Assembly: GCA_016793325.1 (NCBI GenBank)
Contig: JAEUKI010000056.1
Span: 4,221 to 68,220, forward strand
DNA from: Myxococcales bacterium
GTDB taxonomy: Bacteria > Myxococcota_A > Polyangia > Polyangiales > Ga0077539
Direction: 5' to 3'
DNA: 64,000 nucleotides
Positions 22,860 to 57,488 of the stretch are shown one piece after another; positions within the stretch are counted from its first letter, which is position 1, and every line of letters begins with the position of its first letter. Both the position numbers and the translations under genes were made by a program. The notes under the pieces are model-generated. The model had not been told where the DNA came from, did no database searches, and worked only from the letters and a program-made list of their open reading frames with translations.

Positions 22860-23303
22860 ATGGGATTCGATCCAAACGGCGGGCAAGGCGGACAAGGCGG
22901 ACAAGGCGGATGGCCGGGAGCTCCCCAGCAAGGCGGAGCGTGGGGCGGCCAGCCGCAACAGCCCGGCGCGCCATTTCAACCGCAACAACCGCAAGCAGGG
23001 TTCGGCGCGCCGCAGCCGGGCTTCGGCGCTCCGCCGCAAGCCGGCATGGCGCCGTACGGCGGCGCTCCGATGATGGGCGGCGCCGCGGGCGGCGCGAAGC
23101 CGAAGCAGACGATGCTGCTCCTCGCGATCCTGCCGTTTCTCTTCGGCTTCAGCGGGATCCACAGCTTCTACGCAGGCCACACGGTCAAGGGAATCATCCA
23201 GTTCTTGACCTTCGGCGGCTGCGGAATCTGGCAGCTCATCGACATCATCGGGATCTTCAACGGCTCGTACCGCGACGCCAACGGCCAGCCGCTCGCGCCG
23301 TAA
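22860..23303 (+). CDS. TM2-domain membrane protein with Gly/Gln/Pro-rich low-complexity N-terminus
   Basis: N-terminal GGQGGQGGQGGWPGAPQQGGAWGGQPQQPG.. C-terminal TM2 domain (LLLAILPFLFGFSGIHSFYAGHTVKGIIQFLTFGGCGIWQLIDIIGIF). Confidence 0.8.
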   Translation: MGFDPNGGQGGQGGQGGWPGAPQQGGAWGGQPQQPGAPFQPQQPQAGFGAPQPGFGAPPQAGMAPYGGAPMMGGAAGGAKPKQTMLLLAILPFLFGFSGIHSFYAGHTVKGIIQFLTFGGCGIWQLIDIIGIFNGSYRDANGQPLAP

Positions 23304-23398
23304 TTCTCGCGATGCGCTCGTAGGGGCTGTGGAGTCCAGTGGTGGGGGCTGGACGAACGCGCTCGCGCGGTGTGTTCTCACGCAGTGAGCGCGGTGCG

Positions 23399-23932
23399 AT
23401 GAGCGACGACGAGCGAGACACTCGAAGCGGTCCGCGCTCGCCTCGGTGGTTCGCCGCGGGCGCGCTCGGGCTCGGGCTGCTCGTCGGCGTCGCGCTCTAC
23501 TCGGGCGTCGCCACGAGCGGCGGCGCGACGTGCCCATCGCGCTGGCTCTTCGACGCCCCCTGCGCCGGCTGTGGGATGACTCGCGCGTTCGAAGGGCTGC
23601 TTCACGGCGACCTCGGCTACGCGCTTCGCGCGAACGTCGTTTCGCCGGTGCTGTTCACGCTCGCCGCGATCGTCGCGCTCGTGTTCGGCGCGCAGCTCGC
23701 GACCGGACGCGACCTCTACCGCGCGCTCGCTGCGCGGAGGCTCGTGCGCGGCGGCGTATCAGCGCTGCTCCTCGCGCTCGTATTGATTGCGTGGGTTAGT
23801 AATCAAATGCGCCACAAGCGCGGCGAAGGTCCACTTCACCTCCGCACGTGGCATCACGAGCACGGGCGAGCCCCGCTCGTCGATCTGCCGGGGGGCGAGC
23901 GGCAGGGTCAATCGCGGCCGGTCGCGCACTGA
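23399..23932 (+). CDS. DUF2752-domain membrane protein
   Basis: Start MSDDERD. Signature CPSRWLFDAPCAGCGMTRAF (CPxxxxxxxPCPGCGxTRA of DUF2752) followed by TM helices. Confidence 0.75.
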   Translation: MSDDERDTRSGPRSPRWFAAGALGLGLLVGVALYSGVATSGGATCPSRWLFDAPCAGCGMTRAFEGLLHGDLGYALRANVVSPVLFTLAAIVALVFGAQLATGRDLYRALAARRLVRGGVSALLLALVLIAWVSNQMRHKRGEGPLHLRTWHHEHGRAPLVDLPGGERQGQSRPVAH

Positions 23933-26928: not shown

Positions 26929-28491
26929 CTATTCGCCAGCGCACCACGCGGCGAGTGTGAGCGCGGGTGCGCTCGTCGGTCTTCCAAATTGCCAATCGAG
27001 CGGAAGAAACGCAGCACCGCCGATGTCCAGGTGGACGTACGCGAGCCCGCTGTTCTTCAGTCCGCTCGCGACGTCGAGAAACGCGAACGGACCTTGATGT
27101 CCGCGCGCTGTGTCGACGCTCGCCAGTCGATTGCTGCTCACGAGGTCCTCGGCGTTGGAGCGCGGCGCGCAAAACGCATAGTCCTCGCGGCGAACGCGCG
27201 TCCACTCCATCGGCTCGCCCCAGCGCTCGCCGCACTCGACGAGCGTCGCGATCACGCCGCGATCGCGCGCGACTTTGTTCTCGATCGCGCCGACGTACGG
27301 GCCGAACGCGCGGATCACATGGCCCGTCAGTGTAGCGACCGATGCGATCACCGTTGTTCCGCTGTCGGACTTCGCGCGCTCGCGAAGCTCGGAGAGGAGA
27401 TCCGCGAGGACGAGCCTGCCTTCGGCGTCGGTATTTCCGATGCGAACCCTCACACCCGCATGCGACGCGATCACCTCGTCGCTCACGAACGACTCTTCGC
27501 CGATGGAGTTGCGCACCATCCCGAGCAGCGCCACCACGCGCACGCCCTTCACCTTCGCCGCTGCGCACGCGCGCACGAACGCGGCGACGGCGCCTGCCCC
27601 GCCCTTGTCGCGGGACATCCCCGCCATCGAGCCACCTGTTTTCAAGTCCGCGCCGCCCGTGTCGTACGTGAGGCCCTTTCCAGCGAGGTAGAGCGTGCGC
27701 TCGTAGCGTCCGCCCTCGGGCGTATACTCGAGCTCGATCACGCACGGCCGGTGTCGCTCGACGACGTTGGACGCGCGCGCGACCGCGGTGAGCAGCGGCC
27801 ATCGGCTCGTGTCGCGGTGGATCGCGACGCGCACGCCCGTCTCGGCAAACGCCTTCTCGCAGAGCTCTGCTGCGCGCAACGGAGCCATCCGCTCGGGCTC
27901 GGTCCCCGTGATGTCCCGCCCGAGCGCGCGTCCGACTTCGAGCCCGCGGAGGTAGTCAGCCCGCGCCTCGGTCAACCCGACGACGCCCATCGCGACGGCG
28001 CCCTCGCCCGCGCGTCCAGCTTCGCGCGCCTCGAGCGCGTGCCACTGCGTCGCGAGCGCCGCGAGCGCGGCGACGTCGACGGCTCGCGCGAACTTGGCGT
28101 CATGGGGCACCGCGATCGCGAGGAGCGGCTTCTTGGCGCCGGACGCGCACGCGCGGTTGATCGCGGCGGTGACCGTCTCGGCGACCGCGCGCACGTCGTC
28201 GATGTCGTCGGTGAGCGCGCCGCACGTGGCGAGGACGACCCGCTTTCCAGCAGCGGATTCGCAGGGAAGAACGACAGGGCCCTGCGGGCCGCGCGCCATC
28301 GCGCGGTCGCTCTCGAGGACCGATCGAACGAGCGCCGCGACGGGCGCTGGCAGCGCGAGCTCGTCGAGGTAGTTCGCGATCGGCGAGGCGCTCACGAGCA
28401 CGAGGGCGTCGAACGACGAGGGCGACGCGGACGATGCTTCGAGCGCGATGGCGTCCTTCGCGACGCCGAGCAGCAACGGGGTGACGTACAT
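26929..28491 (-). CDS. pepA: Leucyl aminopeptidase, M17 family
   Basis: M17 signature NTDAEGRLVLAD plus metal-ligand region (KGLTYDTGG, DKGGAG). Confidence 0.85.
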   Translation of the reverse strand: MYVTPLLLGVAKDAIALEASSASPSSFDALVLVSASPIANYLDELALPAPVAALVRSVLESDRAMARGPQGPVVLPCESAAGKRVVLATCGALTDDIDDVRAVAETVTAAINRACASGAKKPLLAIAVPHDAKFARAVDVAALAALATQWHALEAREAGRAGEGAVAMGVVGLTEARADYLRGLEVGRALGRDITGTEPERMAPLRAAELCEKAFAETGVRVAIHRDTSRWPLLTAVARASNVVERHRPCVIELEYTPEGGRYERTLYLAGKGLTYDTGGADLKTGGSMAGMSRDKGGAGAVAAFVRACAAAKVKGVRVVALLGMVRNSIGEESFVSDEVIASHAGVRVRIGNTDAEGRLVLADLLSELRERAKSDSGTTVIASVATLTGHVIRAFGPYVGAIENKVARDRGVIATLVECGERWGEPMEWTRVRREDYAFCAPRSNAEDLVSSNRLASVDTARGHQGPFAFLDVASGLKNSGLAYVHLDIGGAAFLPLDWQFGRPTSAPALTLAAWCAGE

Positions 28492-28506
28492 GGGGCGCGG
28501 AGACTA

Positions 28507-28619
28507 AACCGCCGCTCGTTCGATCGCCGTACTTTTCTCGATGGATTCGTGGCGGTTCGACTTGATTTCAAGCACGCCAACGCTCGTCTCATTTCGAAGA
28601 CGTTCAACGCTGGCGTGGT
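28507..28619. ncRNA. Copy A of a ~113-nt conserved intergenic element (candidate sRNA or MITE). ~83% identical to copy B at 40276..40388
   Basis: Direct alignment of the two intergenic copies. Two predicted hairpins conserved, with wobble/compensatory changes (GAUCGCCGU/GUGGCGGUUC and GCACGCC/GGCGUG). The implied peptides are not conserved, so the conservation is at nucleotide level. Confidence 0.4.
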
Positions 28620-28651
28620 TCGTCGGCGCCCGGCTCCGTCGGGGACGCGCG

Positions 28652-30568
28652 CTACTCGAGCAGGTGAGCCACGCTCATGAGCGCGATGATGACGCCGAGC
28701 AGCGACTCGCCGGCGATGATGCCGGACGCGACGGGGATCGTGTACGTCTCGGCCTTCTTCTCGTTGTAGCGAGAGAACGCGTACGCGAGCAGCGCGCCGA
28801 TGAACATGCTCACGGAGTTCCACGCGGGGATCACGAGGGCGAGGCCGACGCCCATCGCGCTCGGGAGGTACTTCTTGTGCTTGGGAAACGCGAGCTCGAG
28901 CAGCGGCAGGACGATGCCGATGATCCCGCCGATCAACATGCCCCAGCGCGCCGTGGGATGCAGCGAGTGGACGCCGTGCGAGAGCGCCTCGGCGACGCCC
29001 TTCCACACCTGCGCGGCGGGCGCTGGAAAGCGATCACCGCCGAGCGCCGCCGGCGTCGGCACGAGCACATAGAACAGCGGAACGATCACGAGCGTCCCGA
29101 CGAACGTCCCCGAGAACTGCGCGAGAAACTGCCGACGCGGGTTGGCGCCGAGCAGGTAGCCGCTCTTCAAATCCGTGAGCAAATCTGCAGCGCTTCCCGC
29201 GGCGCCCGCGGTGATGCTCGCCGTGAGCAGGTTGGTCGTGACGTTGGCCGGCGCGAGCACTCCGTACGTGAGCTGCGTGATCTTGCCCATCGCGCCGACG
29301 GGCGTCGTGTCGGTCTCTCCCGTCGCGCGGCACGCGACGATCGCGAGGACGAACGAGAGAAGCACCGCGATGATCGAGAGCCACGGCGCGATTCCGAACC
29401 CGAGCCAGCCGACGATCACGAGGCCGATCGTCGCGAAGAGCATGCCCGCGCCGAACCACGAGTTGGGCACTTCGATCGCCGCCATTTGATCCTTCTCGGT
29501 GATCTCGCTTCCTTCGCGGTACGGGGCACCCTCGCCCGCCTTCGTCTTTCGTCCGCCGAAGCCGCTGAAGGCTCGGAGGATCGTGCGCCACTGCAGCGCG
29601 AAGGTGAGCAAGCCCGAGGTGACCATCAACGCGGCGCCGGGCCACAGCGACCACGAGACGATTCCGCGGTACGAAATGCGGGTGATTCCGCCCATCGCGT
29701 GGATCTTCGGCGCGAGGTAGCCGTAGTTGAGCAGCGCCGCGGCCAGCATCGACGCGGTCGTGCGAAGGCCCATCATCGCGCCCGCCGCGACCATGATGAG
29801 CGACCCTTCGAAGCCGATCGTCCACGTGAGCGCGGGTTGTCCCGCGATCGTGAGCTTCGGAATCCCGAAGGTCGCCGGGATCTTCGAGAGCTTCGTCAAG
29901 ATCCCGAGGACGCCGGCCTTGTTGACCGCGTGCGCGTCGCGGAGCCACGCGACGACAGCGCCCACGCCCATCGCAGCGAAGAGCGCGCGAGCCTTCTTCG
30001 CGGACTCTTCACCGGCAGAATACAGAGATCGAAGCGTCTCGGCTGCGGCCGTTCCGCTCGGAAACTGAAGCTGCTCGACGTTGATCATCTGGCGCTTCAT
30101 CGGGATGGCCATCACGGTCCCGAGCACCGCGAGCAAGAACGTCCACGCTACGAGCAGCGGCCACGGCATGTGCGATCCCTTCACGAGCAGGTACGCGCAC
30201 ATGGCGGAGACCATCGTTCCACCGGTGGAATAGCCCGCAGAAGACGCGGTCGACGCCATCGCGTTGTTCTCGAGGATCGACAGGTTGCTCTTGAACAACC
30301 CGATCGCTTGCAGTCCTCGCCCGAGCGCAAACGACAAGATGCACGCGGTGATCGCGACGCCCAAGCCCCAGCCGGTCTTAAGACCAACGTACAGGTTGGA
30401 CGCCGCCATCACGACGCCGATCACCGAGCCCATCACGAAGGACCGCAGCGTGAACTGCGGCATCGTGTCGCCCTGGTAGACGGTCTTGAACCAGTGCGCC
30501 TCTGGGTCGACGCCGTCGGGAACAGTCTGTTTGCCAGCCGCAGCAGTCTCTGCGCTCTCGATGTGCAT
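28652..30568 (-). CDS. OPT-family oligopeptide transporter
   Basis: 638 aa polytopic protein with OPT signatures (NLYVGLKTGW, GYSTGG, ANPRRQFLAQ). Confidence 0.85.
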   Translation of the reverse strand: MHIESAETAAAGKQTVPDGVDPEAHWFKTVYQGDTMPQFTLRSFVMGSVIGVVMAASNLYVGLKTGWGLGVAITACILSFALGRGLQAIGLFKSNLSILENNAMASTASSAGYSTGGTMVSAMCAYLLVKGSHMPWPLLVAWTFLLAVLGTVMAIPMKRQMINVEQLQFPSGTAAAETLRSLYSAGEESAKKARALFAAMGVGAVVAWLRDAHAVNKAGVLGILTKLSKIPATFGIPKLTIAGQPALTWTIGFEGSLIMVAAGAMMGLRTTASMLAAALLNYGYLAPKIHAMGGITRISYRGIVSWSLWPGAALMVTSGLLTFALQWRTILRAFSGFGGRKTKAGEGAPYREGSEITEKDQMAAIEVPNSWFGAGMLFATIGLVIVGWLGFGIAPWLSIIAVLLSFVLAIVACRATGETDTTPVGAMGKITQLTYGVLAPANVTTNLLTASITAGAAGSAADLLTDLKSGYLLGANPRRQFLAQFSGTFVGTLVIVPLFYVLVPTPAALGGDRFPAPAAQVWKGVAEALSHGVHSLHPTARWGMLIGGIIGIVLPLLELAFPKHKKYLPSAMGVGLALVIPAWNSVSMFIGALLAYAFSRYNEKKAETYTIPVASGIIAGESLLGVIIALMSVAHLLE

Positions 30569-30736: not shown

Positions 30737-33265
30737 ATGAACGAGAGGGATATCAGCCGAGAGCGCGTACGAGAGAGGGATCTCGTGCTCGCCCCCAACG
30801 AGTTCGCGTTCATCTCCGACGAGACGAAGGGAAACATCAACGTCTACGTCGGCCCCCACAAAACAAGCCTCGCGAACACCGATCAGCCCGTGGTGTTCGA
30901 CTACGAGACCAAGCGCTTCAAGCGCGTCACGCTCGAGCAAGCGATCGGCGTGCTCGCGGTCGCGCCCGAGGGCTGGTATCTCGTGCTCAAGAACCCCGCG
31001 CGAGACAGCTCGCACCCGAGGACGGGCGCGCTCAACAACCTCCCCGAGCTCGACGTCGGTCGAAAAGTGAACACGCCCGGCCCGGTGTCGTACGCGCTCT
31101 GGCCGGGGCAGATGGTGAAGGTCGTTCCGGGGCACAGCCTGCGGTCCAACCAGTACTTGCTCGTGCGCGTGTACGACGAGGAGGCCGCGAAGACGAACTG
31201 GGCGAAGGCGGTGATCAAGCGCCAGACCGCGCCAGGGACGGACCCCGTCGCAGAGGGCTCCGAGCAGGGCGTCTTCGATCCGAGCAAGAACGTGCCCGAG
31301 CTCACGATGGGCAAGCACCTCGTGATCCGCGGGACGGACGTGTCGTTCTACATTCCTCCGACGGGCGTCGAGGTCGTCGCGGACGAGCAGGGCAAGTACG
31401 TCCGCGACGCGGCGACGCTCGAGCGGCTCGAGTACACGATCCTGCTCGATGAGGACGGAAACAAGCGGTTCATTCAGGGTCCCGCGGTCGTGTTTCCGAG
31501 GCCGACCGAGACGTTCATCGAGCGCAACGGGAGCCGAAAGTTTCGTGCGATCGAGCTGACCGAGATCGCCGGCGTCTACGTGAAGGTCATCGCGCCCTAC
31601 GAAGAGAACGGCCGCGCGTACAAGGTCGGCGACGAGCTGTTCATCACGGGCCGCGAGCAGATGATCTACTTCCCTCGCCCCGAGCACGCGCTCATTCGCT
31701 ACGGCGGACGCGAGATCCACTATGGCATCGCGATCCCTGCCGGCGAAGCGCGGTACGTCCTCGACCGCACCCAGGGAAACATTCGCCTCGAGCGCGGACC
31801 GACGGTGTTTCTCCCGGACCCGCGCCGCGAGGTGATCGTCCGCAAGGTGCTCGATCCCAAGACGGTCGACCTGTTGTTTCCCGGCAACAAGGACGCGCTC
31901 GAGTACAACGCGAGGCTGTCGGCGCTCAAGCGCTCGGAGGCCGGCAACGAGTTCGTGATCGACGACGAAGCGCGGCAGGTCGCGCAGCGCTCGCGCGACA
32001 TGGCCGCGCCCGAGAAGAGCAAGGCAGAGGCCGCGTTCGTCGGCGACGCCGTCACACGAAATCAAACGTTCACCCCGCCGCGGACGATCGTCCTCGACAA
32101 TCGCTTCGAGGGAGCCGTCTCGATCGACCTGTGGACGGGCTACGCGGTCCTCGTGAAATCCCGCTCGGGAAAGCGACGCGTCGAGGTCGGCCCCACGGTG
32201 TTTCTGCTCGAGTACGACGAGAACCTCCAGGCGATGGAGCTCTCGACGGGCACGCCCAAGTCCGACGACAAGGTCATGCGCACCGCGTACCTGCGCGTGA
32301 AGAACAACAAAGTGAGCGACCTCGTCGAGGCCGAGACGTCGGACCTCGTCCGAGTCCACATGCGCCTCTCGTATCGGGTCGACTTCGAGGGCGACGCGTC
32401 GCAGTGGTTCGGCGTCGAAAACTACGTCAAATTCCTCACCGATCACCTGCGGTCGCTCTTGCGTCACGCGGTCAAGCAGCACGGCGTCGAGCCGTTCTAC
32501 GGCAACGCGGTGAGCATCATCCGCGACGTGATCCTCGGCCCGCAGGGCGAAGACGGAAAGCGACCCGGCCGGCGCTTCACCGAGAACGGGATGCGCGTCT
32601 ACGACGTCGAGGTGCTCGGCGTCTCGATCGGCGACGAGGCCATCGCGAAGCTCCTCGTCGAAGCGCAGCACGCGTCCGTGCAGCAAGCGCTCGCGGTCGC
32701 GAGCGAGCGACGGCGCCTCGAGCTCACGCGAGCCCGTGAGTCCGCGCGGCAAGAGTCTGCGGCGCTCGAGTCGCAGACCAAAGTGCAGCTCCTCGAGATC
32801 GAAGGGCGCGAGGTCGAGCGCAAGCACGCCGTCGAGCTCGCGCGGATCAAGGCCGAGTCCGACACGCGCGAAAACCGCCACAAAGCCGAGGTTGCGCTTC
32901 AGTCGTTGCTCGACGCGGTGTCCGCGGCGCAGCTCGCGCGCGAGCGAGCGCGGGCGCAGTTCGACGACGAGGTCGCGCGGGCCGAGCTCGATCGAACGGT
33001 GCGCGAGCTCGACGCGCAAGTGCGCGCGACGGCGGAGAAAGCCAAGGCGTTTACGCCCGATCTCGTGGCGGCGCTGCAGGCGTTCGGCGATCGCGCGCTC
33101 GCGGCGAAGATGGCCGAGAGCATGGCCCCGCTCGCGATCCTCGGCGGAGAGAGCGTGGCGGACGTCCTGCGTCGGCTGCTCGAAGGGACGTCGGTCGCCG
33201 ATGTCCTCGCGAAGGTCACCGCGAAATCCGAGGCTCGCGCGTTGCCCGAGGGCTCGAACTCGTAG
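30737..33265 (+). CDS. Major vault protein (MVP)-like protein: N-terminal MVP repeats + shoulder (SPFH-like) + long C-terminal coiled coil
   Basis: Strong SD aaggagg before ATG. At least 5 tandem ~55-aa repeats with the MVP-repeat GP core (VYVGPHKTSL; NTPGPVSYALWPGQMV cf. MVP GPxSFxLxPGE; IQGPAVVFPRP; ERGPTVFLPDP; EVGPTVFLLEY). ~150-aa heptad-rich cap-helix-like C-terminus. Size 842 aa (MVP ~850-900 aa). Confidence 0.75.
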   Translation: MNERDISRERVRERDLVLAPNEFAFISDETKGNINVYVGPHKTSLANTDQPVVFDYETKRFKRVTLEQAIGVLAVAPEGWYLVLKNPARDSSHPRTGALNNLPELDVGRKVNTPGPVSYALWPGQMVKVVPGHSLRSNQYLLVRVYDEEAAKTNWAKAVIKRQTAPGTDPVAEGSEQGVFDPSKNVPELTMGKHLVIRGTDVSFYIPPTGVEVVADEQGKYVRDAATLERLEYTILLDEDGNKRFIQGPAVVFPRPTETFIERNGSRKFRAIELTEIAGVYVKVIAPYEENGRAYKVGDELFITGREQMIYFPRPEHALIRYGGREIHYGIAIPAGEARYVLDRTQGNIRLERGPTVFLPDPRREVIVRKVLDPKTVDLLFPGNKDALEYNARLSALKRSEAGNEFVIDDEARQVAQRSRDMAAPEKSKAEAAFVGDAVTRNQTFTPPRTIVLDNRFEGAVSIDLWTGYAVLVKSRSGKRRVEVGPTVFLLEYDENLQAMELSTGTPKSDDKVMRTAYLRVKNNKVSDLVEAETSDLVRVHMRLSYRVDFEGDASQWFGVENYVKFLTDHLRSLLRHAVKQHGVEPFYGNAVSIIRDVILGPQGEDGKRPGRRFTENGMRVYDVEVLGVSIGDEAIAKLLVEAQHASVQQALAVASERRRLELTRARESARQESAALESQTKVQLLEIEGREVERKHAVELARIKAESDTRENRHKAEVALQSLLDAVSAAQLARERARAQFDDEVARAELDRTVRELDAQVRATAEKAKAFTPDLVAALQAFGDRALAAKMAESMAPLAILGGESVADVLRRLLEGTSVADVLAKVTAKSEARALPEGSNS

Positions 33266-39700: not shown

Positions 39701-40276
39701 ATGGAAGCCCGGAGGAGCGAGGCGCACGACCGTGCGCTGGTCATTGCGGCGACGCCCGTGATCGAGACCGAGCGACTCGCGCTCGTCCCGATGACGTTGT
39801 CGATCGTCGAGGCGGTCATGCTCGATCGACGCGAGGACGCGCGGCGGCTCATCGCGGCGGACATGCCGAAGCGATGGCCCGGACGAGCGCTCGTCGAGCG
39901 CGCGTTCTCCGCCTCGCTCGACCGCATTCGCGCGGCGCCCGAGCGCAGATTGTGGGGCGATCGGCTGATGATCGTGAAGGGCGAGCGCCCGAGGGTCGTC
40001 GGCAGCGTCGTGTTTCACGGGTTTCCCGAGGACGGGATCGCCGAGGTGGGCTACGGCGTGGACGAAGACGTTCAACGCATGGGGTACGCGACCGAAGCGA
40101 CGCGCGCCGCGGTCGACTGGGCGCTCGAGCAAGCTCCCATCCGCGCGGTGCGCGCGACGACGTTTCCGTGGCACCGCGCGTCGGTGCGAGTTCTCGAAAA
40201 AGTGGGGATGCGCAAGGTCGCCGTCGACGAGCACGACGTGCTCGGCGAGCAGTGGATCTTCGAGCGCGTTCGCTGA
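39701..40276 (+). CDS. GNAT family N-acetyltransferase (RimJ/RimL-like, Acetyltransf_3)
   Basis: TERLALVPMT...GYGVDEDVQRMGYATEATRAAVDWA...RASVRVLEKVGM pattern. Confidence 0.75.
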   Translation: MEARRSEAHDRALVIAATPVIETERLALVPMTLSIVEAVMLDRREDARRLIAADMPKRWPGRALVERAFSASLDRIRAAPERRLWGDRLMIVKGERPRVVGSVVFHGFPEDGIAEVGYGVDEDVQRMGYATEATRAAVDWALEQAPIRAVRATTFPWHRASVRVLEKVGMRKVAVDEHDVLGEQWIFERVR

Positions 40277-40388
40277 ACCGCCACTCATTCGATCGCCACA
40301 CTTTCGTCGATCGATTCGTGGCGGTTCGACTTGATTTCAACCACGCCGATACTCGGCTCAGTTCTACGACGTTCAATTGGGGCGTGGT
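40276..40388. ncRNA. Copy B of the ~113-nt conserved intergenic element (see 28507..28619)
   Basis: ~83% nucleotide identity to copy A in the same orientation. Lies between the GNAT gene and lipB. Confidence 0.4.
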
Positions 40389-40450
40389 GCAGCGCGCATC
40401 GCCCGTGGCGCGAGGGCGCAAAGTGCGCCATGGTCGCCCCGCGCAACGAG

Positions 40451-41164
40451 ATGACCACGCAACGAACCTTCGCGGCCCGATGGCTCGGTCGCGTCCCGTA
40501 CGAGCGCGCGACGGCGCTGCAGCTCGAGCACTTCGAGCGCCGAAAGCGCGGCGAAGGCACGGACACGCTCCTCTTGCTCGAGCACGACCCGGTCCTCACG
40601 CTCGGTCGCAGCGCAGACGGGTCGAACGTCGTGATCAGCGACGAAGAGCGCCTCGCGCGCGGCGTAGACCTCGTCTCGACGACGCGCGGCGGGGACGTGA
40701 CCTACCACGGCCCGGGGCAGCTCGTGGCGTATCCGATCTTCGATCTACGGCCGGATCGATGCGACGTTCGAAAATATGTGCGCGACCTCGTCGAGGTGAT
40801 GTCTCGGCTGTGCGCGGACTTCGGCGTCGGCGCAGGGCCGCACTCGAACATGATCGGCGCGTGGGTCGACCTCGACGCGCCCCGCGACAAGTGGCCCGGC
40901 GACGCGGCCGCGAAGCACCCTGCGAAGATCGGCGCGATCGGCGTGAAGATCTCGCGCTGGATCACGATGCACGGCTTCGCGCTCAACGTCCGGACGAAGC
41001 TCGATGACTTCGCCATGATCGTCCCGTGCGGAATCGCCGAGCACCCAGTGTGCTCGCTCGAGTCCATCGGCGTGAGTGACGCGCCGGGACTCGCCTGGTT
41101 CGCTCGGCGCGCGGTGGGACACTTCGAAGACGTCTTCTCGGCGCGCTGCGTCGATGGTCCATGA
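40451..41164 (+). CDS. lipB: Lipoyl(octanoyl) transferase
   Basis: Start MTTQRTF. LipB motifs (RWLGRVPYERA, HDPVLTLGR, GGDVTYHGPGQLVAYPI, KIGAIGVKISRWITMHGFALNV with catalytic Cys region PCGI). Confidence 0.85.
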   Translation: MTTQRTFAARWLGRVPYERATALQLEHFERRKRGEGTDTLLLLEHDPVLTLGRSADGSNVVISDEERLARGVDLVSTTRGGDVTYHGPGQLVAYPIFDLRPDRCDVRKYVRDLVEVMSRLCADFGVGAGPHSNMIGAWVDLDAPRDKWPGDAAAKHPAKIGAIGVKISRWITMHGFALNVRTKLDDFAMIVPCGIAEHPVCSLESIGVSDAPGLAWFARRAVGHFEDVFSARCVDGP

Positions 41165-42660: not shown

Positions 42661-43711
42661 CGGTGGGTGTCGCCGCACCGTTGTAGTGAAGGTCCATCGC
42701 GGCCCAGCCGTTAGCGCGGTCGGGTACGGCGATGTCGTCCGCGCCGTTCGATGGACATTGGCTGGCGTCGGCGTGAAGTCGTGACCTTGCGCGACGCGAC
42801 GCGATGACTAGTCTCCGAACCCATCGGTTCTGGTCACTCATCGAGGCGGTATCGCCGACGACGGAGCAGCCAAGAAGAGGCGCGGATCGGTGATCGAAGC
42901 CACCGATTCACGCGTCCCCGAAGCACGACAACCGCCGTCGACCACGGCCACTTTGAAGAGAGCGACCATGATCAATCGAAGCACCCTGGGTCGGACGAGC
43001 GCTGCTCGCCGACCCTCGGCGGAACACATTCGCGCTCCGCCCCGTTGAAGCAAACGCTAACTCGACGCTTCGGCGACGAGTCGTTCGTCACTGAATCGAA
43101 CCAACGACGACAGAGTTGCCCGCGACGAGCGGGCGCAGAAGGATTCGAGAGTACGGAGTCTGCACGAGCTACATGGGCCACACGATCGCTGCCGAGACGA
43201 CAGAGGGACTTCGCGCCCGACGTCGCGCGACGCAGAGAGCGTAAATGGTCAAAGGAGCAGTGGTTCATCTGGCGCAGAGCCAGCCACGCTCCGTCGGGCC
43301 GCGCGAGTTCGGCGACGTCTCCGGTGGGAGCAGTCGCGCGCGGGATTCGATGCCCTCCTTCAACCACCTTTTGGGCATCTTTGAATCACAAAAGCCCTAC
43401 CCCGACGCGCCGAACAATCGATGGACCTCCAACGCGCTCATTCTTCTGAACACACAACACGAAGATCGAACTCGCGCACGGCGCCCGCCAACTCCGACAT
43501 ATGGCTCTGATCGGAGAGCGGCGCCCGCGAGGGACGACTTCGACACGACGCGCAAGCGACTCGAGACACGACGACCGAGCCTCCCCCGCTCGGACGGCGG
43601 TTCGACGCGCTTCATCCCGTCGTCTGCCCTCCGAAACCGCGCGGATGTGCGTCCCCCACGGCGCGCGGCGTCGCGCAGGACCCACGAAGGCTGCGGTATA
43701 CAGACACGCCC

Positions 43712-46700
43712 GTGCAACGCTCGACTCTCGCTCCTGTGCTCAATGACGTCGGCCTCTGGCGTGCGCTCACAGAGCGCGATCGCGTGGAGTGCACGGACGA
43801 GCAGATCGCTGCGGCGTTCGACGCTGTCGCATCGCGGTCGGTGCGGCGACGCATCGCGCTGCTCGGGCTCGCTGCGACGGCGGCGATGACCCACCCGAGC
43901 GCGCTCGTTCGCGCCTCTGCCCATCGCGCGCTCATCGGCGCTCGTGGAACGCGCGCGCACGCCGCCATCGCCCGAGGCCTCGACGACGACGACGGCGCCG
44001 TCCGCCGCGCCGCGGTCGAATCGCTGCGCGCGCTCGCGAGCGCCGAACCCGAGCGGTGGATCCACGCCGTCGTGCACAGCCGAGCGGACGTTCGTGAGAT
44101 CGCCGTCGAGCTCGGGCCACCGCCGCGCGCCGAGGTGTTCGAACTCCCGTTGCTCGCGGACGAGGCGGCGCGCCCGAAGGTCCTGCCGCGCATCGAGCGC
44201 TGGGCCAAGGCGTCGACGTCGGTTCCCGCGTTCGCGGTCCCCGCGTTGCTCGACTCGACCGTGCGCGGATGGCTGCCGTTGTCGACGGCGCGAGCGATCA
44301 TCGACCGCGTTCCGACGGATCGATTGGGCCAGTGGCTGTTCGACCAAGCCGGACGAGGGCACCTCACCGATCCCGCCGAAGTCGCAGCGACCAACGCCGA
44401 CTCGACAGACCCGCTCGACGCGCTGCTCGAGCTCGAGTGGTCCCGTGAAGCGCCCACGAAGATTCCGTCCGACGCCCTGTGGTGGAAGTTGATCGGCCCC
44501 GTCGCCGATCAGTTCGACCAACTTCGACTGCGCTTCGCCGCGTCTGCGTGGGCGCTCGCGAAGCGCAAGGGCTACTGGTCCGCCTCGGGCCTCGCGGCGT
44601 GCGTGCTCTTTGCGCCGCAGTCGCTGCGCGGCGTCGAGATCCCTCCCGATTTCGTCGAGACCATCGTCGCCGCGAGCGTTCACGCGCAGCAGGCCTCGAT
44701 TCTGCTCGCGACGCGGCCTTCGATCGAGCGCATCGACGCGATTCGCGCCAAGCGCTCGACGCTCGATCGAGACGAAGTGCTCGCGGTCGCGATCGCGGCG
44801 ACGATGCAGCCGGGCTCTCGCTTCGAGGTGGCCTTGCACGCGCTCGGTCGAGATCGCCTCGTCGACGCGGTCGTTGCGTTTCCACGAGCGGCTGCGCTGC
44901 TGTTCGTCGATCCGGCGAGCTCGCTGGGAGCGTGCATCGATGTGCTCGATCTCGCGCGAGCGCGCTCGCCCGAGGCGGTCACCGAGCTCGCAGACCGCCT
45001 GTTGACCCTCGGCGGCGTCGAGCCCTTCTCAGTCTTCGACCTCGTCGGTCCGAGCGCTTCGCACGCGGCGCTGAAAGCCCACTGCGAGCGGCTCGCGCCG
45101 ACCCATCGGTCCATCGACCCACGAATTCAACTATGCCGTTCGATCGCAGGCGAAGCGCTCCCGACGCTGCTCGACGCGATCTTGTCTCGGCCCGACGTCG
45201 ACCCGCTGTTGCTTCGCTGGCTGCTCGCGGCGCTCGAGACCGAGCCGTGCGACGCGCTCGCGGCGTACATCACGCGCCGCGCCGCGCCCAACACACGCGC
45301 GATGCGCGCGCTCCTCGCGGCGATCGAGTCCTCGCATGCGCCCGCGGTCGCGCTCGCGCGCGTCGCGCAGAGCGCGGTCGAAGAGCGCGTCGCCCGAGCC
45401 GATCCAGCCCGAGAGCGCGCCGACGAGGCGATCGAACCGCCCGCAGCGACGGTCCCGGCTGTTGTCTCGGCGCCCGATGTCGCGCCGCCGGACGGGCAAG
45501 CGCTCGACGACTTGACCTACGTCTCGGATGAAGAGCTCGAAGATTTGGTCAAGCCATTCTTGCGCTGGCCGGTCACGGGCGTCGCCGCTGCGCTCGAGCT
45601 CCGAGAGTCACCTTCGCCCAACCCGTGGCTGTGCGCTGCGCTTCTGCGCGCGCACGACGCCGCTGAGCACGTCGCTCGCGTGCTCGCGACGTTTTGGCCG
45701 ACGGACCCCGAGACGCTCGCGACGCTCGACGAGCTCGTGGCCTCCAAGCTCGGGGCCTTCGATGACCTCGGGATGCTCGCGTCCGCGTGGCTCTTTCGCT
45801 GGGAGAAACACGCGCGGCGCTTCGTCGAGCTCGCCACGCAGTCCGGGTCGCTCGCGCAGGTGCTCGCCACGGTCGATCGATGGCCCGAGCCCCTCGCGGC
45901 TCGCGCGTGGAGCGCCGCCGCGCGCGTGCTCGAGACCACGGCGGCCCGCGGCGGGTCCGACGCCGTGAGCCCCGAGCTGTGGACGCCGATCGCGCGACTT
46001 GCGATCGACGAGATGTCCGGAGACGACGTTCCGCTCGTGCGAGACGAAGCGGCGCGATTTCTCGCGGCCGCGTCTCGAGCGCCGGCGTCGCGCGCGATCA
46101 TCGAGCCGCTCCGCGCCGACGCCACCGCGCTCCGTCCGTCGCTGAGCGCAGAGCGATCCGCGCTGCTCGGCGCCTGGCTCGATCGCGTCGCGACCGAGCG
46201 CCGTCCGCTCGCGACCGAGATCCTCGCGCGTCGACAACAACTCGAGAAGCTCCGACACGGACCGAAAGAAGCTGCGGCCGAGCTCGTCGCCGAGCTCGCG
46301 ACGTCCGCCGACGGTCGAGCGCTGATCTTGTACGCGCTCGAGCAAGAGCCGCGACCGCGCGCGTTCGACGAGCTCAACGCGGAGGTCGCGCGATGGCGGG
46401 GCGCGCTCGCGGCGAAGGTCGACGAGGTCCTCGCCACGAGGCCCGTGGCGCTCGCGGTCGACGTCGAGCTCGCCCGCGCGAAAGCGGGAGATCCCGACGC
46501 GTGGGCGCGCGCCGCGAAGCGCCTCTTCGAGTGCGACGAGCTCGTCGACGCGCGAACGATTCACGCGGTAGCGAGCGACGAAGCGCAGCGCAGCGAGCTC
46601 GCGTTCGCGTGGCTCGACGCGCGCTCTGCGTCCGTGCGGCACTGGGCGATCGAGCAGGCGCTCGTGTACGGGGACGTCGCGGGCAGCGCGCTCTCGACGC

Positions 46701-48793
46701 CCGAGCGCGCGCCGCTCGTGATCGCGAAGGTCGAGGCGCTCTTGTTCGATCTCGGGCCGAGCAAGGACGAGCTGCGACGGCGCGCCGCGCGCTGGCTGTG
46801 GCTGCGAGGGATCACGACGGGCTTCGTCCTGCTCGCGCAACACCAGATCAACGCGCCTCCCGGCGCGCCCGACTGGATCGCGACGGCGACGGACACGCAG
46901 CTCGAATCGCTCGTCGACGCGGCGATGACCGCGGGAAACTCCGTGCTGCCAGAGACGTGGATCGTCGATCTCTTGCGCGCTCCATCGATCGGGTTGCTCG
47001 TCGCGGTCGACGCCTGGTCAGCGCTGTTGCAGTGGGCGAGCACCGCGCCTTCGCGGCAGGCGGCGATCAACGAGCTCAATCGCGTGCGTCTCTTTCGCGG
47101 AGCGCGCGCGGCGAAGCTCCGCGCGGTCGCGCGGGTGTTCGCGTGGGGCGTCGAGGTGGGCCTGGTGCTCACGGGCCGCGCGATGAGCGTGCAGCTCGCG
47201 CGCGATCAAGCGCTCGGGTATACGCGGCTCGACGAGGACCGAGTGTTCGTGAGCGCGCTGCCGCTGTTGCGCGGCGAGCGCTTCGGCCGCGCCGTGGTCG
47301 AAGGGCTCTTGCTCCACGAGTTTGGACACCATCGATATCACCGCGGCGACGAGCAGCGCGCCGCGTGGGATCAGGGCTTTCGCGAGGGAATCGGCCCGTT
47401 GCTCAACCTCGTCGCCGACGAGCACCTCGAGCGCAACTTGCGCGCGCTCGACACCGAGTACGGCGATCGACTGAAGCGGCTCGACTCCTATGCGTTTCAG
47501 CACATGAGTCGGCCGCTCGCCGTGGCGACGCTGTTCGAGGTGTTGCGAGGCGATTTGCTGTCAGTGCTCACGTCGACCGAGCTCCTCTTCGCGCAGGATC
47601 CCGCGAGCGTGGTGCTCGAGCACGGGCGACTCTTGCAAGCGCTCGAGCGCTCGGGATCGAGCTTCGCTCGGTGGGTGCGCGCGCTGCGGATGGGGCTCGG
47701 CGACCGGCACGGCGACGAGAAGGTGTCTCGCGCGCTGGCGCTGTTTTCGGGGACGAAGTTTCGCAAGAGCACCATGGGCGAGTTGCTCGAGATCGCGCGA
47801 AAGGTCCGGGCGATCTTCGGCGACGAGTGCCGCCTTCTCAACGTCGTCGCGTCGCACGAGGACGTCGGTCACGGCGAAGAGGGCGAGCTCGATCGCTTGG
47901 GCGAAGGGATCTCGGACGAAGAGATTCGCCGTGAAGTCGACCGCATCACCAACCCGCGCAAGAGCGACGACGACGGGCTGAGCACCATGCGGCCCGGCGG
48001 AAAGCGCTGGCTCAACGTCACCGAGGGAACGGACTTCGACCTGATCACCCAGGTCGTTCGCGTGAAGTACGAGCCGTCCAAGCACCGCGCGCTCTCCGAG
48101 CGCGTTCGACGCTCCGCAGGGACGCTTCGCTCGTACCTCGAGCGGCTGGGGCTGCACCTTCAGCCGCAGCGATTGCGACTGCGCGGCCGACGCGTGGACG
48201 CGCCGCGGACGCGCGCGCTCGTCACGCGGGGAGACCCTCGCGTGCTCATCGCGCGCGAGATCCAGATCAAGACGGACCTCTTCATCGGCGTGGTGATCGA
48301 CTGCTCGGGCTCGATGGCTGGCGGCGAGAACATGCCGCGCGCCAGGCTCTTCGGCGCGCTGATCGCCGAGGCTGCGCGCGCGATGCCCGGCGTCGACGTT
48401 CGGATCTTCGGCTTCACCGATCGCGTGATCTACGACGCAGGAGACTCGACGCACCCCGCGGTGCACGCGCTCGAAGCGGGCGGAGGCAACAACGACTCGG
48501 GCGCGCTCTGGCACGCGGCGAACGTCGCGCGTGCGTCGAATCGGCGAGCAAAATTGCTGGTGATGATCTCCGATGGGCTCCCCACCGAGTGCTCCGCAGC
48601 GTCGCTCAAGCACCTCGCCGTCGAGCTCACGCGCCGACACAAGATGTGCTGCGCGCAGATCGCAGTGCAGCCCCTGCCCGAGGTGCTCTTTCCGAACTAT
48701 GTCGAGTGCGACGGGCCGGACACGGACGTGGTGGTCAAGCGCTTCGGGCGCATCATCGAGGGGCTGGTGAAGCGGGCGATGGGCGTTCCATAG
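43712..48793 (+). CDS. Giant (1693 aa) HEAT/PBS-lyase-repeat protein with C-terminal zincin-like HExxH module and von Willebrand factor A (vWA, MIDAS-complete) domain
   Basis: GTG start. N-terminal HEAT-like repeats (DDDGAVRRAAVESLRALAS; SRADVREIAVELG). Helical solenoid body. HEFGHH motif at ~aa 1200 with downstream ADEHLE. C-terminal vWA with DCSGSMAG...ISDGLPTE (DxSxS..T..D MIDAS). Confidence 0.75.
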   Translation: MQRSTLAPVLNDVGLWRALTERDRVECTDEQIAAAFDAVASRSVRRRIALLGLAATAAMTHPSALVRASAHRALIGARGTRAHAAIARGLDDDDGAVRRAAVESLRALASAEPERWIHAVVHSRADVREIAVELGPPPRAEVFELPLLADEAARPKVLPRIERWAKASTSVPAFAVPALLDSTVRGWLPLSTARAIIDRVPTDRLGQWLFDQAGRGHLTDPAEVAATNADSTDPLDALLELEWSREAPTKIPSDALWWKLIGPVADQFDQLRLRFAASAWALAKRKGYWSASGLAACVLFAPQSLRGVEIPPDFVETIVAASVHAQQASILLATRPSIERIDAIRAKRSTLDRDEVLAVAIAATMQPGSRFEVALHALGRDRLVDAVVAFPRAAALLFVDPASSLGACIDVLDLARARSPEAVTELADRLLTLGGVEPFSVFDLVGPSASHAALKAHCERLAPTHRSIDPRIQLCRSIAGEALPTLLDAILSRPDVDPLLLRWLLAALETEPCDALAAYITRRAAPNTRAMRALLAAIESSHAPAVALARVAQSAVEERVARADPARERADEAIEPPAATVPAVVSAPDVAPPDGQALDDLTYVSDEELEDLVKPFLRWPVTGVAAALELRESPSPNPWLCAALLRAHDAAEHVARVLATFWPTDPETLATLDELVASKLGAFDDLGMLASAWLFRWEKHARRFVELATQSGSLAQVLATVDRWPEPLAARAWSAAARVLETTAARGGSDAVSPELWTPIARLAIDEMSGDDVPLVRDEAARFLAAASRAPASRAIIEPLRADATALRPSLSAERSALLGAWLDRVATERRPLATEILARRQQLEKLRHGPKEAAAELVAELATSADGRALILYALEQEPRPRAFDELNAEVARWRGALAAKVDEVLATRPVALAVDVELARAKAGDPDAWARAAKRLFECDELVDARTIHAVASDEAQRSELAFAWLDARSASVRHWAIEQALVYGDVAGSALSTPERAPLVIAKVEALLFDLGPSKDELRRRAARWLWLRGITTGFVLLAQHQINAPPGAPDWIATATDTQLESLVDAAMTAGNSVLPETWIVDLLRAPSIGLLVAVDAWSALLQWASTAPSRQAAINELNRVRLFRGARAAKLRAVARVFAWGVEVGLVLTGRAMSVQLARDQALGYTRLDEDRVFVSALPLLRGERFGRAVVEGLLLHEFGHHRYHRGDEQRAAWDQGFREGIGPLLNLVADEHLERNLRALDTEYGDRLKRLDSYAFQHMSRPLAVATLFEVLRGDLLSVLTSTELLFAQDPASVVLEHGRLLQALERSGSSFARWVRALRMGLGDRHGDEKVSRALALFSGTKFRKSTMGELLEIARKVRAIFGDECRLLNVVASHEDVGHGEEGELDRLGEGISDEEIRREVDRITNPRKSDDDGLSTMRPGGKRWLNVTEGTDFDLITQVVRVKYEPSKHRALSERVRRSAGTLRSYLERLGLHLQPQRLRLRGRRVDAPRTRALVTRGDPRVLIAREIQIKTDLFIGVVIDCSGSMAGGENMPRARLFGALIAEAARAMPGVDVRIFGFTDRVIYDAGDSTHPAVHALEAGGGNNDSGALWHAANVARASNRRAKLLVMISDGLPTECSAASLKHLAVELTRRHKMCCAQIAVQPLPEVLFPNYVECDGPDTDVVVKRFGRIIEGLVKRAMGVP

Positions 48794-52644: not shown

Positions 52645-53607
52645 ATGACGTATTGGGGTCCGGGAACTGTCCCGCCCGGCTACATGCTCGCCCCCGACGG
52701 AACGCTCGTTCCCGTCGTTCCAGGCGCACCGGTTCAGCACCATCCCGTGCCGCCCGCCGCGCCGTATGGCGCCGTGGTCGCCGTGCCCTCGCCTGTGCCG
52801 TACGGCGCGGTGCCCTACGGGTATGTGCCGCAGCCGGCGCCTGTCCCCGTGATGGTGCCGCAGCCGATGCCGCAGATGGTGGCGGTGCAGCCCGTGGTCG
52901 TCGCGACCCACGTCGTGGGCAACGTGGCCGTCGCGCAAGGGCACGCATACGCGGGCTACGTGCAGCAAACCGCGTACGTTCAAGCGCCGATCGCGCAGCC
53001 CATGCAACCGGTCCCGACGCACGCGACCGCGCCCGGAGCGCCGCAGGCGTACGCCCCAGGGTGGACGCACCCGCAGCCCGCTCAACACGGCGGATCCCAG
53101 GACAACGCCCTCGCGATCGCGCGCGAAGACAGCCTTTCGGCGCGCGATCGATACCAGGGCGAAGCTGGCTCCGTGGGAGCGCTCTCGCTCGCCACGAGCG
53201 GATTGATCCTCGCGACGGCGCTCGCGACGGTGACGTTCTTCGTCGTTCCCGTGGGCGCCGTGCTCGCGTCCGCGGCGGTCGCGAGCGGCGTGACGGGGGG
53301 GCTCGGATTGTGGCTTCTTCGTCAGCGAAAGAAGCTCCGCGGCAAGGTCGACCTCGACCCAGAGATTCAAGTGCGGCTCCTCGACCTCGCGACGAAGAAG
53401 CGCGGACGATTGACGGTCACCACGACGGCACAAGGTCTCGGGCTCACCCTCGATGAAGCAGAACGCGCCCTCCAGGCGATGGCGGCATCGCACTACGTCG
53501 ACGTCGAGCTCGACCCAGACGTGGGCGTGGTGACGTACGTGTTTCGTGAGCTCGTCCCCACCCCGCCGCAGCTGCCCGCATCTACCACCGAGGCTCCCAC
53601 TCGATGA
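52645..53607 (+). CDS. Pro-rich membrane protein (N-terminal PxP/Y-rich region, TM, C-terminal globular domain)
   Basis: Start MTYWGPG. Low-complexity VP/PY-rich N-terminus. TM LILATALATVTFFVVPVGAVLASAAVASGV. ATGA-coupled to the downstream TM2 gene. Confidence 0.55.
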   Translation: MTYWGPGTVPPGYMLAPDGTLVPVVPGAPVQHHPVPPAAPYGAVVAVPSPVPYGAVPYGYVPQPAPVPVMVPQPMPQMVAVQPVVVATHVVGNVAVAQGHAYAGYVQQTAYVQAPIAQPMQPVPTHATAPGAPQAYAPGWTHPQPAQHGGSQDNALAIAREDSLSARDRYQGEAGSVGALSLATSGLILATALATVTFFVVPVGAVLASAAVASGVTGGLGLWLLRQRKKLRGKVDLDPEIQVRLLDLATKKRGRLTVTTTAQGLGLTLDEAERALQAMAASHYVDVELDPDVGVVTYVFRELVPTPPQLPASTTEAPTR

Positions 53608-54554
53608 ACAACGACGACCACAGCACCGGGACGTCGAACACCATGACTGCTGAAGCGAGCGATCCGCTGGCGGACGCGCTTCGCAACGACAAGCCGCCGC
53701 CCGCTGCCGCGCACTCGACCCCGCCGCCGAGCGAGCGCTCTTCGCCGCCCGCGCCGCTCGCGCCCGTGGGCGCGTGGCCGCCGCCGAACCCGACCGCCGC
53801 CAACGCGCCAGTGTATGCGCAGCCGAACGCGCACGACGCGCCCCGCGCGCCGCAGCCGACGCCCGTGTACGCACACCCCGCGTACGGCGCTCCGGCCGCT
53901 GCGTTTCCGCAAGCGCCGGCGCCCGATCCCTACAAACCACCGCAGTACCAGCAGCCGTATCCACCGCCGCCCGCGCAGCACGCGCCGAGCCCGTACGGCC
54001 ACTACCAACAGCCTCAGTACCAGCACCCACAATATCAACAGCCGCAGTACCCACCGCAGCCGCAGTATCCGCAGCCTCAGTACGCACCGCAGCCTCCGTA
54101 CGCGCAGCCATACGCGCAGCCATACGCGCAGCCGCAACCAGCGCCGGTCGCGCCGCAGTTGCTGCCGTACGCGCCCGCGCCGATGCCTGCGGCGTACACA
54201 GCGCCCGCGCAGACGTACGCGATCGTTCCGGCGCCGCAGATGATGCCAATGGTCGTGCAGCAGCCGATGATGATGGTCGCGCCGGCGCCGCAGATGGTTC
54301 AGTACGGGCAGGTCGCGCAGACGGGCATCGTCCGCGTCGGAAACGCCAACCGCCTCGTGTTCGCGGTGCTCGCGTTTCTTCTGGGATTCATCGGCTTGCA
54401 CAAGTTTTATCAGGGCAAGCCTGTGTGGGGATTGATCTACCTGCTCACGTCGTGGACGGGCGTTCCTGCGATCGTGTCGGTGATCGAAGGGCTCGTGGCG
54501 CTGTTCCAGACGGACGCTGCGTTCGACGCGGACAACAACTTGCGCGCGATCTGA
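53604..54554 (+). CDS. TM2-domain membrane protein with long Pro/Gln/Tyr-rich (PQY repeat) N-terminus
   Basis: ~200 aa of QPQYQ/PYAQPYAQ repeats, then TM2 domain (RLVFAVLAFLLGFIGLHKFYQGKPVWGLIYLLTSWTGVPAIVSVIEGLVALF). Confidence 0.75.
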   Translation: MNNDDHSTGTSNTMTAEASDPLADALRNDKPPPAAAHSTPPPSERSSPPAPLAPVGAWPPPNPTAANAPVYAQPNAHDAPRAPQPTPVYAHPAYGAPAAAFPQAPAPDPYKPPQYQQPYPPPPAQHAPSPYGHYQQPQYQHPQYQQPQYPPQPQYPQPQYAPQPPYAQPYAQPYAQPQPAPVAPQLLPYAPAPMPAAYTAPAQTYAIVPAPQMMPMVVQQPMMMVAPAPQMVQYGQVAQTGIVRVGNANRLVFAVLAFLLGFIGLHKFYQGKPVWGLIYLLTSWTGVPAIVSVIEGLVALFQTDAAFDADNNLRAI

Positions 54555-57222: not shown

Positions 57223-57488
57223 CTGGGCGGACTGACGGCGGTCGCCGTCTGGAACGAAGAACCCACTGAACAATCGCTGCTCGCGGCGCGCGTAGCGCGA
57301 GGCTGGGCGCCGACGCCTACCTGGATGGTGGACGGCCCGAAAGTGCTCGGCTACGCCGCGTGCCTCAACAACGCCGCACGATGAACGACGTCGAAACCAG
57401 ACGTGCGTCGGCGTGGTAGAGCTCGAGTCGAACCGCCACGAACCCAGCGATCGACGGGCGTCGAACGAACGAGCGGCGGTGTAGCGCG

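Follow-up and report, generated by a model that had tools for sequence, protein, structure and literature searches.

The 64-kb stretch of Myxococcales DNA analysed here (the window) carries chromosomal genes throughout, with no integrase, phage or plasmid genes in the neighbourhood, and a short repeat was found in several of its intergenic spacers. Copy A (28506-28621, + strand) lies between the gene of an OPT-family transporter (28652-30568, - strand), whose stop at 28652 bounds the spacer on one side, and pepA, coding for an M17 aminopeptidase (26929-28491, - strand), whose start at 28491 bounds it on the other. The copy is antisense to both genes, and its 5' end is 14 nt from the pepA start codon. 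Copy B (40275-40390, + strand) is found in the spacer between a GNAT acetyltransferase gene (39701-40276, + strand), whose stop at 40276 borders it, and lipB (about 40430-41164, + strand, start at 40430), and has the same sense as these two genes. Both copies are 116 nt long; the limits of B are exact, since they are given by an empty site in a closely related strain (L034, see below), and those of A follow from homology to B. An earlier note on this DNA had placed two copies of ~113 nt here, between genes and in the same orientation, on the pepA and lipB sides, and these positions proved right to within at most 1-2 nt. The identity of ~83% given there was also reproduced, with A and B matching at 95 of 116 positions (81.9%) in an ungapped alignment. 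The GC content of the two copies is 54-55%, as compared to 68.5% for the whole window.

Among the genes around these spacers, one at 30737-33265 (+ strand) codes for an 842-residue protein with major vault protein shoulder and repeat domains (PF11978, PF17795), and this vault-like gene stands beside the OPT-pepA pair in all the relatives fetched. Genes for TM2-domain and DUF2752 proteins and for several Ser/Thr kinases recur as well (window 22860-23932 and 53604-54554, and in relatives).

The most conserved part of the repeat is a 26-nt core, TTCGTGGCGGTTCGACTTGATTTCAA, composed of the 3' arm of the first of two hairpins and the linker that follows it. This core is identical in copy A (28546-28571, + strand) and copy B (40315-40340, + strand) and has no other occurrence in the window at up to 3 mismatches, and shuffled sequence yielded 0 matches. 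A profile of the family scores A and B each at E ~1e-36. Searching the window and all of the fetched relatives' DNA with such a profile retrieved four members beyond A and B. One of these lies in the window itself, so that the description of the element as "present twice" was correct as to the reality of both copies but missed a third, more divergent one. This copy C (118 nt, 57365-57482, - strand; its 3' limit is uncertain by 1 nt) is 70-77% identical to A and B, and was detected by nhmmer with E = 4e-18, or E = 4e-31 when a five-copy profile was used. Copy C lies upstream of a histidine-phosphatase gene encoded on the opposite strand, with its 5' end 6 nt from the start codon (57489).

Three of the six known members lie outside the window, in two other Myxococcota assemblies. 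Two of them, L001a (L001 3426-3551, - strand) and L001b (L001 3251-3362, + strand), are found on a contig of a Deltaproteobacteria metagenome-assembled genome, where they stand tail to tail as an inverted pair, 63 nt apart. Both carry in hairpin 2 a 10-nt insertion that is absent from the window copies and is a genome-specific subfamily marker, and in L001b hairpin 1 has in addition lost 14 nt. Neither between the two copies nor beside them was a gene recognised by Pfam. The stretch L001 3251-3551 is the same sequence as L017 6425-6725, and lies in a gene-poor stretch of roughly 850 nt. The sixth and divergent member, L035c, was found at positions 13853-13965 of L035 (GCA_013298625.1), a relative of the source organism. 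It falls within L035 13075-14114, the counterpart of a gene-free stretch of ~1 kb in the window (42661-43711) that is located upstream of a 1693-residue ORF (43712-48793); the two stretches show no sequence conservation, and the L035 counterpart of the ORF gave only a weak HEAT_2 match.

Altogether, the six members come from three Myxococcota genomes and are found in either orientation, in intergenic regions unrelated to one another. Their length ranges from 112 to 126 nt. Pairwise identity among the copies is 70-82% and none are near-identical, which gives no indication of a recent burst among those known. In about 117 kb of DNA from relatives a single divergent member was found, as compared to three members in the 64-kb window. 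An exact scan for a 20-mer of the core in 185,579 genomes retrieved one true locus (L001) and one chance match (L002), and an exact 18-mer scan of the JGI metagenomes retrieved 27 loci, of which all but one (26) matched by chance; the exception, L017, was the L001 sequence. Two degenerate patterns gave 0 matches in viral contigs, and BLASTN found no match in plasmids and phages. Either the family is rare, or its core is too variable for exact-word scans. In the literature that we searched, the core sequence appears in no paper and there is no description of a myxobacterial MITE or REP of this kind; for the phylum Myxococcota, no such miniature element was found described.

Comparison with relatives revealed that each of the three window copies occupies a site that is empty elsewhere. 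At site A, the OPT-pepA spacer measures 160 nt in the window versus 45, 50 and 43 nt in L003, L004 and L005, respectively. These three relatives (PepA identity 88%, 88% and 76%) keep the OPT gene beside pepA, and in the alignment one single block is missing from all of them. At site C, exactly the element is lacking in both L038 and L039, whose phosphatases are 90% and 70% identical to that of the window. Site B could be compared with L034, which has a LipB 99% identical to that of the window and DNA 95.6-96.5% identical over 18.8 kb. The sole large difference between the two sequences is the absence of 40275-40390 from L034, with identical flanks, and the single BLAST break is at L034 8359/8360, equivalent to window 40274/40391. 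The empty site reads ...GTTCGCT|AGCGCGC... (CGCTAGCG) and the filled site ...GTTCGCT[GAACC...GGTGC]AGCGCGC..., with an insert of exactly 116 nt, no target-site duplication and no base lost in this empty/filled pair. The element is also missing at site B from L035. A further relative, L036, has a GNAT-lipB gap called at 158 nt (L036 9843-10000), as compared to 37-59 nt in L034 and L035; part of this gap may be lipB sequence, since lipB is called shorter there (217 aa), and as the extra sequence has no match to the element profile, it points to a different insertion or rearrangement in the same spacer.

The insertion of B (window 40274-40276, L034 8359-8361) splits the TAG stop codon of the GNAT gene between T and AG. 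The first two bases of the element, GA, rebuild this stop as TGA, and the GNAT protein has 191 residues in both strains. We considered whether the start of the element, T(A/G)A, regularly serves as the stop codon of the upstream gene, but this is true for B only; the rule was dropped because the two ORFs in L001 that would have supported it show neither the GC pattern over codon positions that is typical of genes nor any Pfam match.

These three independent and precise presence/absence differences indicate that the unit is mobile DNA, which either inserted here or was exactly excised in the relatives. Since several relatives are empty at each site, parsimony favours insertion; insertion in the source lineage and precise excision in the relatives are not formally separable, and either implies mobility. 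We conclude that the repeat is probably a small non-coding, non-autonomous mobile DNA element of ~116 nt. From the two copies visible to the earlier note, both upstream of genes, one could have imagined a chance local duplication, or a conserved regulatory leader, with no mobility involved. This explanation has a negligible probability in light of the further members now found (a total of six from three genomes, with both orientations represented and no relation between their gene contexts), and it is refuted by the precise empty sites at three loci. Orientation relative to the downstream gene differs among the window copies, with A and C being antisense to the gene that they precede and B being sense, and a leader or riboswitch was rejected on this ground.

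Examination of the junctions revealed the dinucleotide CT immediately 5' of all six members, in all three genomes (GACT|A, CGCT|G, CGCT|A, GCCT|G, AGCT|A and CGCT|C, with the bar marking the start of the element). The frequency of CT in the window is 0.048, so that its occurrence before six of six members is far from chance. The CT preceding copy B (40273-40274, + strand) is also present in the empty site of L034, and is therefore part of the target rather than of the element; the corresponding dinucleotides are at 28504-28505 (+ strand) for copy A and at 57483-57484 for copy C, where it is seen as AG on the + strand. Upstream of the CT the bases vary among the members, and the shared flank motif is just 2 nt long. 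On the other side, AG directly follows B and L035c, and also C if its right end is taken as one base shorter. The preferred target may thus be CT|AG, as judged from three sites with some boundary uncertainty.

An insertion that leaves no scar, with CT at its left junction, could also be the work of another recombinase that makes no duplication, such as an IS110-type enzyme with a bridge RNA, an IS607-type serine recombinase, or an IS91/rolling-circle enzyme. The IS110-family element IS621 uses a CT core. For the IS110 and serine-recombinase types, however, a core dinucleotide shared by both junctions is expected, and the junctions of copy B, CT|GA on the left and GC|AG on the right (...GGTGC|AGCG), have no such shared core, with no CT, TA or AG repeated at the right one. 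As for IS91, its target, GTTC/CTTG, is not found at the flanks of the element. To our knowledge, gene-less derivatives of 116 nt are not known for the IS110, IS607 or IS91 types, and we regard this explanation as unlikely.

The earlier note had described two stem-loops, and both hairpins were indeed found in A and in B. In copy A, hairpin 1 (28507-28557, + strand) has the arms AACCGCCGC and GTGGCGGTT around a smaller palindrome, and hairpin 2 (28571-28619, + strand) has the arms AGCACGCC and GGCGTGGT. In copy B, the arms of hairpin 1 (40275-40327, + strand), GAACCGCCAC and GTGGCGGTTC, form a perfect helix of 10 bp, inside which TCGATCG (40289-40295) and CGATCGA (40308-40314) form the inner palindrome on the + strand; those of hairpin 2 (40340-40388, + strand), ACCACGCC and GGCGTGGT, pair perfectly over 8 bp. 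In general form, the 5' arm of hairpin 1, (G/A)AACCGCC(A/G)C, starts at base 1-2 of the element and pairs with GTGGCGGTT(C) located 33-37 nt downstream, the loop holding the small palindrome TCGATCG...CGATCGA. This hairpin is followed by the conserved linker CGACTTGATTTCAA and then by hairpin 2, in which CCACGCC pairs with GGCGTGG and which ends 2-3 nt from the 3' end of the element. The hairpin loops are 25-37 nt long, and the sequence GGTTCGACT is invariant in all six members.

Folding of the copies largely agreed with this arrangement. The minimum-energy folds of A, B and both L001 copies consist of two separate hairpins, and the fold of copy C has a z-score of 0. Across the family, 81-83% of the helix cells are paired, versus 27-54% when the partners are slid, and the helix of hairpin 1 is 88% paired. 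The substitutions within the helices had been read as compensatory, a claim that did not hold: A and B differ by one change of A-U to a G-U wobble, which is not a two-sided change; at the foot of hairpin 2, the G/C difference amounts to one pair gained or lost. Among five copies no pair is altered on both sides, and adding L035c brings in one double change, of G-C to A-T. When covariation was assessed, both among the five copies and with L035c included, no measure exceeded the shuffles. The single changes that keep a pair are G-T/G-U wobbles when the top strand is read, and would be A-C mismatches on the bottom strand. As these wobbles are valid on the top strand only, they are a hint that it is the top strand that folds, whether as RNA or as single-stranded DNA.

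We next consider the possibility that the repeat is a gene family of small RNAs, trans-acting or structural, which was duplicated around the genome and is under selection for RNA structure. The two stem-loops with a strongly conserved single-stranded linker between them fit such a family, as do the pair-keeping changes, being wobbles valid on the + strand only plus the one double change in L035c. The sequence is also non-coding, in line with the earlier statement that the implied peptides are not conserved. In the single long open frame, the variable columns are distributed 15/13/20 over the three codon positions. The indels among the members measure 14, 10 and 1-2 nt, which are not multiples of 3. 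A coding peptide was rejected, as there is no codon periodicity or excess of third-position changes, and L001b and L035c carry frameshifts. The frame that begins at base 2 of the element is open throughout A, B and L001a, and would there encode a similar 38-residue peptide, NR[RH]SFDR...FVAVRLDF....

Against such a family, the Rfam scan suggested earlier yielded no family at the gathering threshold in the whole window, and a relaxed threshold applied to the three window copies gave noise only (E >= 0.2). There is no promoter-like or terminator-like consensus site at any copy, and for this reason a promoter or terminator module was rejected as well. The 5' end of the element abuts or overlaps gene ends, and in the case of B the start of the element falls within a stop codon, which leaves no room for an upstream promoter. 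Conservation of the loci does not extend even to L034, at 96% DNA identity, the copies are not consistently oriented with respect to the genes beside them, covariation remains within the shuffles, and copy C folds with a z-score of 0. The small-RNA reading, one of the two offered in the earlier note, was therefore not upheld, and we consider it improbable. Under such a reading, the element could be transcribed within the neighbouring mRNAs as well.

The alternative put forward in the same note, a MITE, was right in pointing to a mobile element, as seen from the clean insertions versus empty sites of all three window copies, but the element is not a classical MITE, namely a deletion derivative of an insertion sequence with a DDE transposase, having terminal inverted repeats and producing a target-site duplication. 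Its size, non-coding nature, intergenic location and multiple copies would all fit such a derivative. Some copies share the ends GAACC...GGTTC, and the ends of copy C contain a 13-nt pair that is 85% complementary, a marginal likeness. Against this, site B provides an exact empty/filled pair without duplication, and the ends of the element are not significant inverted repeats, its two halves being unrelated in either orientation. When the halves of A, B and L001a were compared for inverted likeness, 146-261 of 300 shuffles scored as well as the real sequence; an organization as a REP doublet or with terminal inverted repeats was rejected on the basis of this result. We thus find a classical MITE very unlikely.

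The explanation that best accounts for the results as a whole is a non-autonomous mobile element moved in trans, to which we assign a probability of roughly three in four. According to this model, a transposase encoded elsewhere in the genome would mobilize the element. The most probable candidate would be an HUH/Y1 enzyme acting on single strands, either of the TnpA type known from IS200/IS605 or of the RAYT type. It would recognise the hairpins of the top strand and cleave on the 3' side of a short target motif, CT in this case, inserting and excising the element scarlessly by cut-and-paste. Hairpins at both ends and scarless insertion after a short motif are together the signature of single-strand Y1 HUH "peel-and-paste" transposition. 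Scarless excision would also explain how copies that are 18-30% apart in sequence can still be polymorphic between strains that are 4% apart. The specific assignment to an HUH/Y1 mechanism, which we infer from the lack of a scar at the junction, the hairpins at the ends and CT as the target, is tentative, and we put it at somewhat less than an even chance. The 64-kb window contains only ordinary chromosomal genes, with no transposase of any kind among them, and none was seen in the examined parts of L001/L017, so that the partner enzyme is hypothetical. The orientations of the window copies are +, + and - within a 30-kb stretch of flat GC skew, and no strand bias is visible among these three.

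As no partner enzyme was found, and as the architecture fits neither the IS200/IS605 nor the REP rules, one may also imagine that the element is the two-hairpin, 116-nt unit of a transposition system not yet described, which would insert without a scar at CT|AG-like sites at gene boundaries, such as the stop codon that copy B splits and repairs and the positions 6 and 14 nt from start codons. Such a system might employ a non-canonical enzyme, or the element might double as a mobile module of structured RNA that rewires the translation starts and stops of housekeeping genes. We give this reading a low probability.

Whichever enzyme would move it, a non-autonomous element at these positions may have consequences for its host. 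Copies A, B and C would probably be transcribed within the neighbouring mRNAs, judging from where they lie. Small repeats have been described as altering translation initiation or mRNA stability (PMC3733652), and by analogy the three copies could change either property in their neighbours; the insertions into a stop codon and at 6-14 nt from two start codons, in particular, could alter expression. They therefore provide natural test cases for the tolerance of such elements beside housekeeping genes. The three insertions are also useful as strain-level markers in an uncultured Myxococcota lineage, and for the purpose of genome annotation the sequence should be marked as a mobile repeat rather than as an sRNA candidate. 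From a mechanistic standpoint, the clean empty/filled pairs give the exact junctions, and the lack of duplication and the CT flank point to a single-strand, HUH-type pathway.

How does the element compare with mobile repeats that are already known? Classical MITEs such as Correia/NEMIS, ERIC and RUP (PMC3733652) resemble it in being about 100-150 nt long and non-coding, in their potential to form stable hairpins, in being inserted beside coding sequences and co-transcribed with them, and in their presence or absence at orthologous sites. Unlike these MITEs, the element has no terminal inverted repeats of 15-30 bp and is not accompanied by a target-site duplication.

Elements of the REP/BIME/REPIN type share more with it. 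The element, like them, is an extragenic hairpin-forming repeat found close to gene ends, and it has an inverted pair in L001. RAYTs cleave at CT dinucleotides beside a REP hairpin (PMC3479197, PMC8266576), and CT likewise stands at the junction of every member of the family. REP palindromes, however, need a GTAG (or CGTC) tetranucleotide at their foot (PMC8266576, PMC3733652), whereas in the six-member alignment neither tetranucleotide adjoins either of the hairpins. The element is also a composite of two hairpins spanning 116 nt, as opposed to the 20-40-nt palindrome of a REP, and it differs from a REPIN in that its halves are not inverted copies of one unit and do not form a single long hairpin. 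In the DNA available, its copies are moreover few and divergent, unlike those of REPs and REPINs.

Members of the IS200/IS605 family insert downstream of a short motif with no duplication and are excised without a scar, and their gene-less derivatives, known as PATEs, are mobilised in trans by TnpA, a Y1 HUH transposase (PMC10055086). The element agrees with PATEs in being short, non-coding and structured at each end, in inserting 3' of a short flank motif without duplication, and in its scarless empty sites and its polymorphism between close strains. It departs from them in having the dinucleotide CT as its flank motif, where that of PATEs is 4-5 nt long, in the terminal bases of its right end, which are not conserved (TC, GC, GA and others), and in that no TnpA partner, no Rfam match resembling an omega RNA and no strand bias were seen for it. 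With hairpin 1 placed flush with the 5' end, a guide tetranucleotide would not fit between the cleavage site and this hairpin, and this feature, along with the long loops of 25-37 nt, sets the element apart from IS200/IS605 and PATEs alike. In its behaviour, it is nevertheless most like the PATEs derived from IS200/IS605 or the REP-type elements, with membership in either being putative. The repeat thus represents a family not described before among the small non-autonomous elements of bacteria, and since elements of this kind are well known, the finding is an incremental one.
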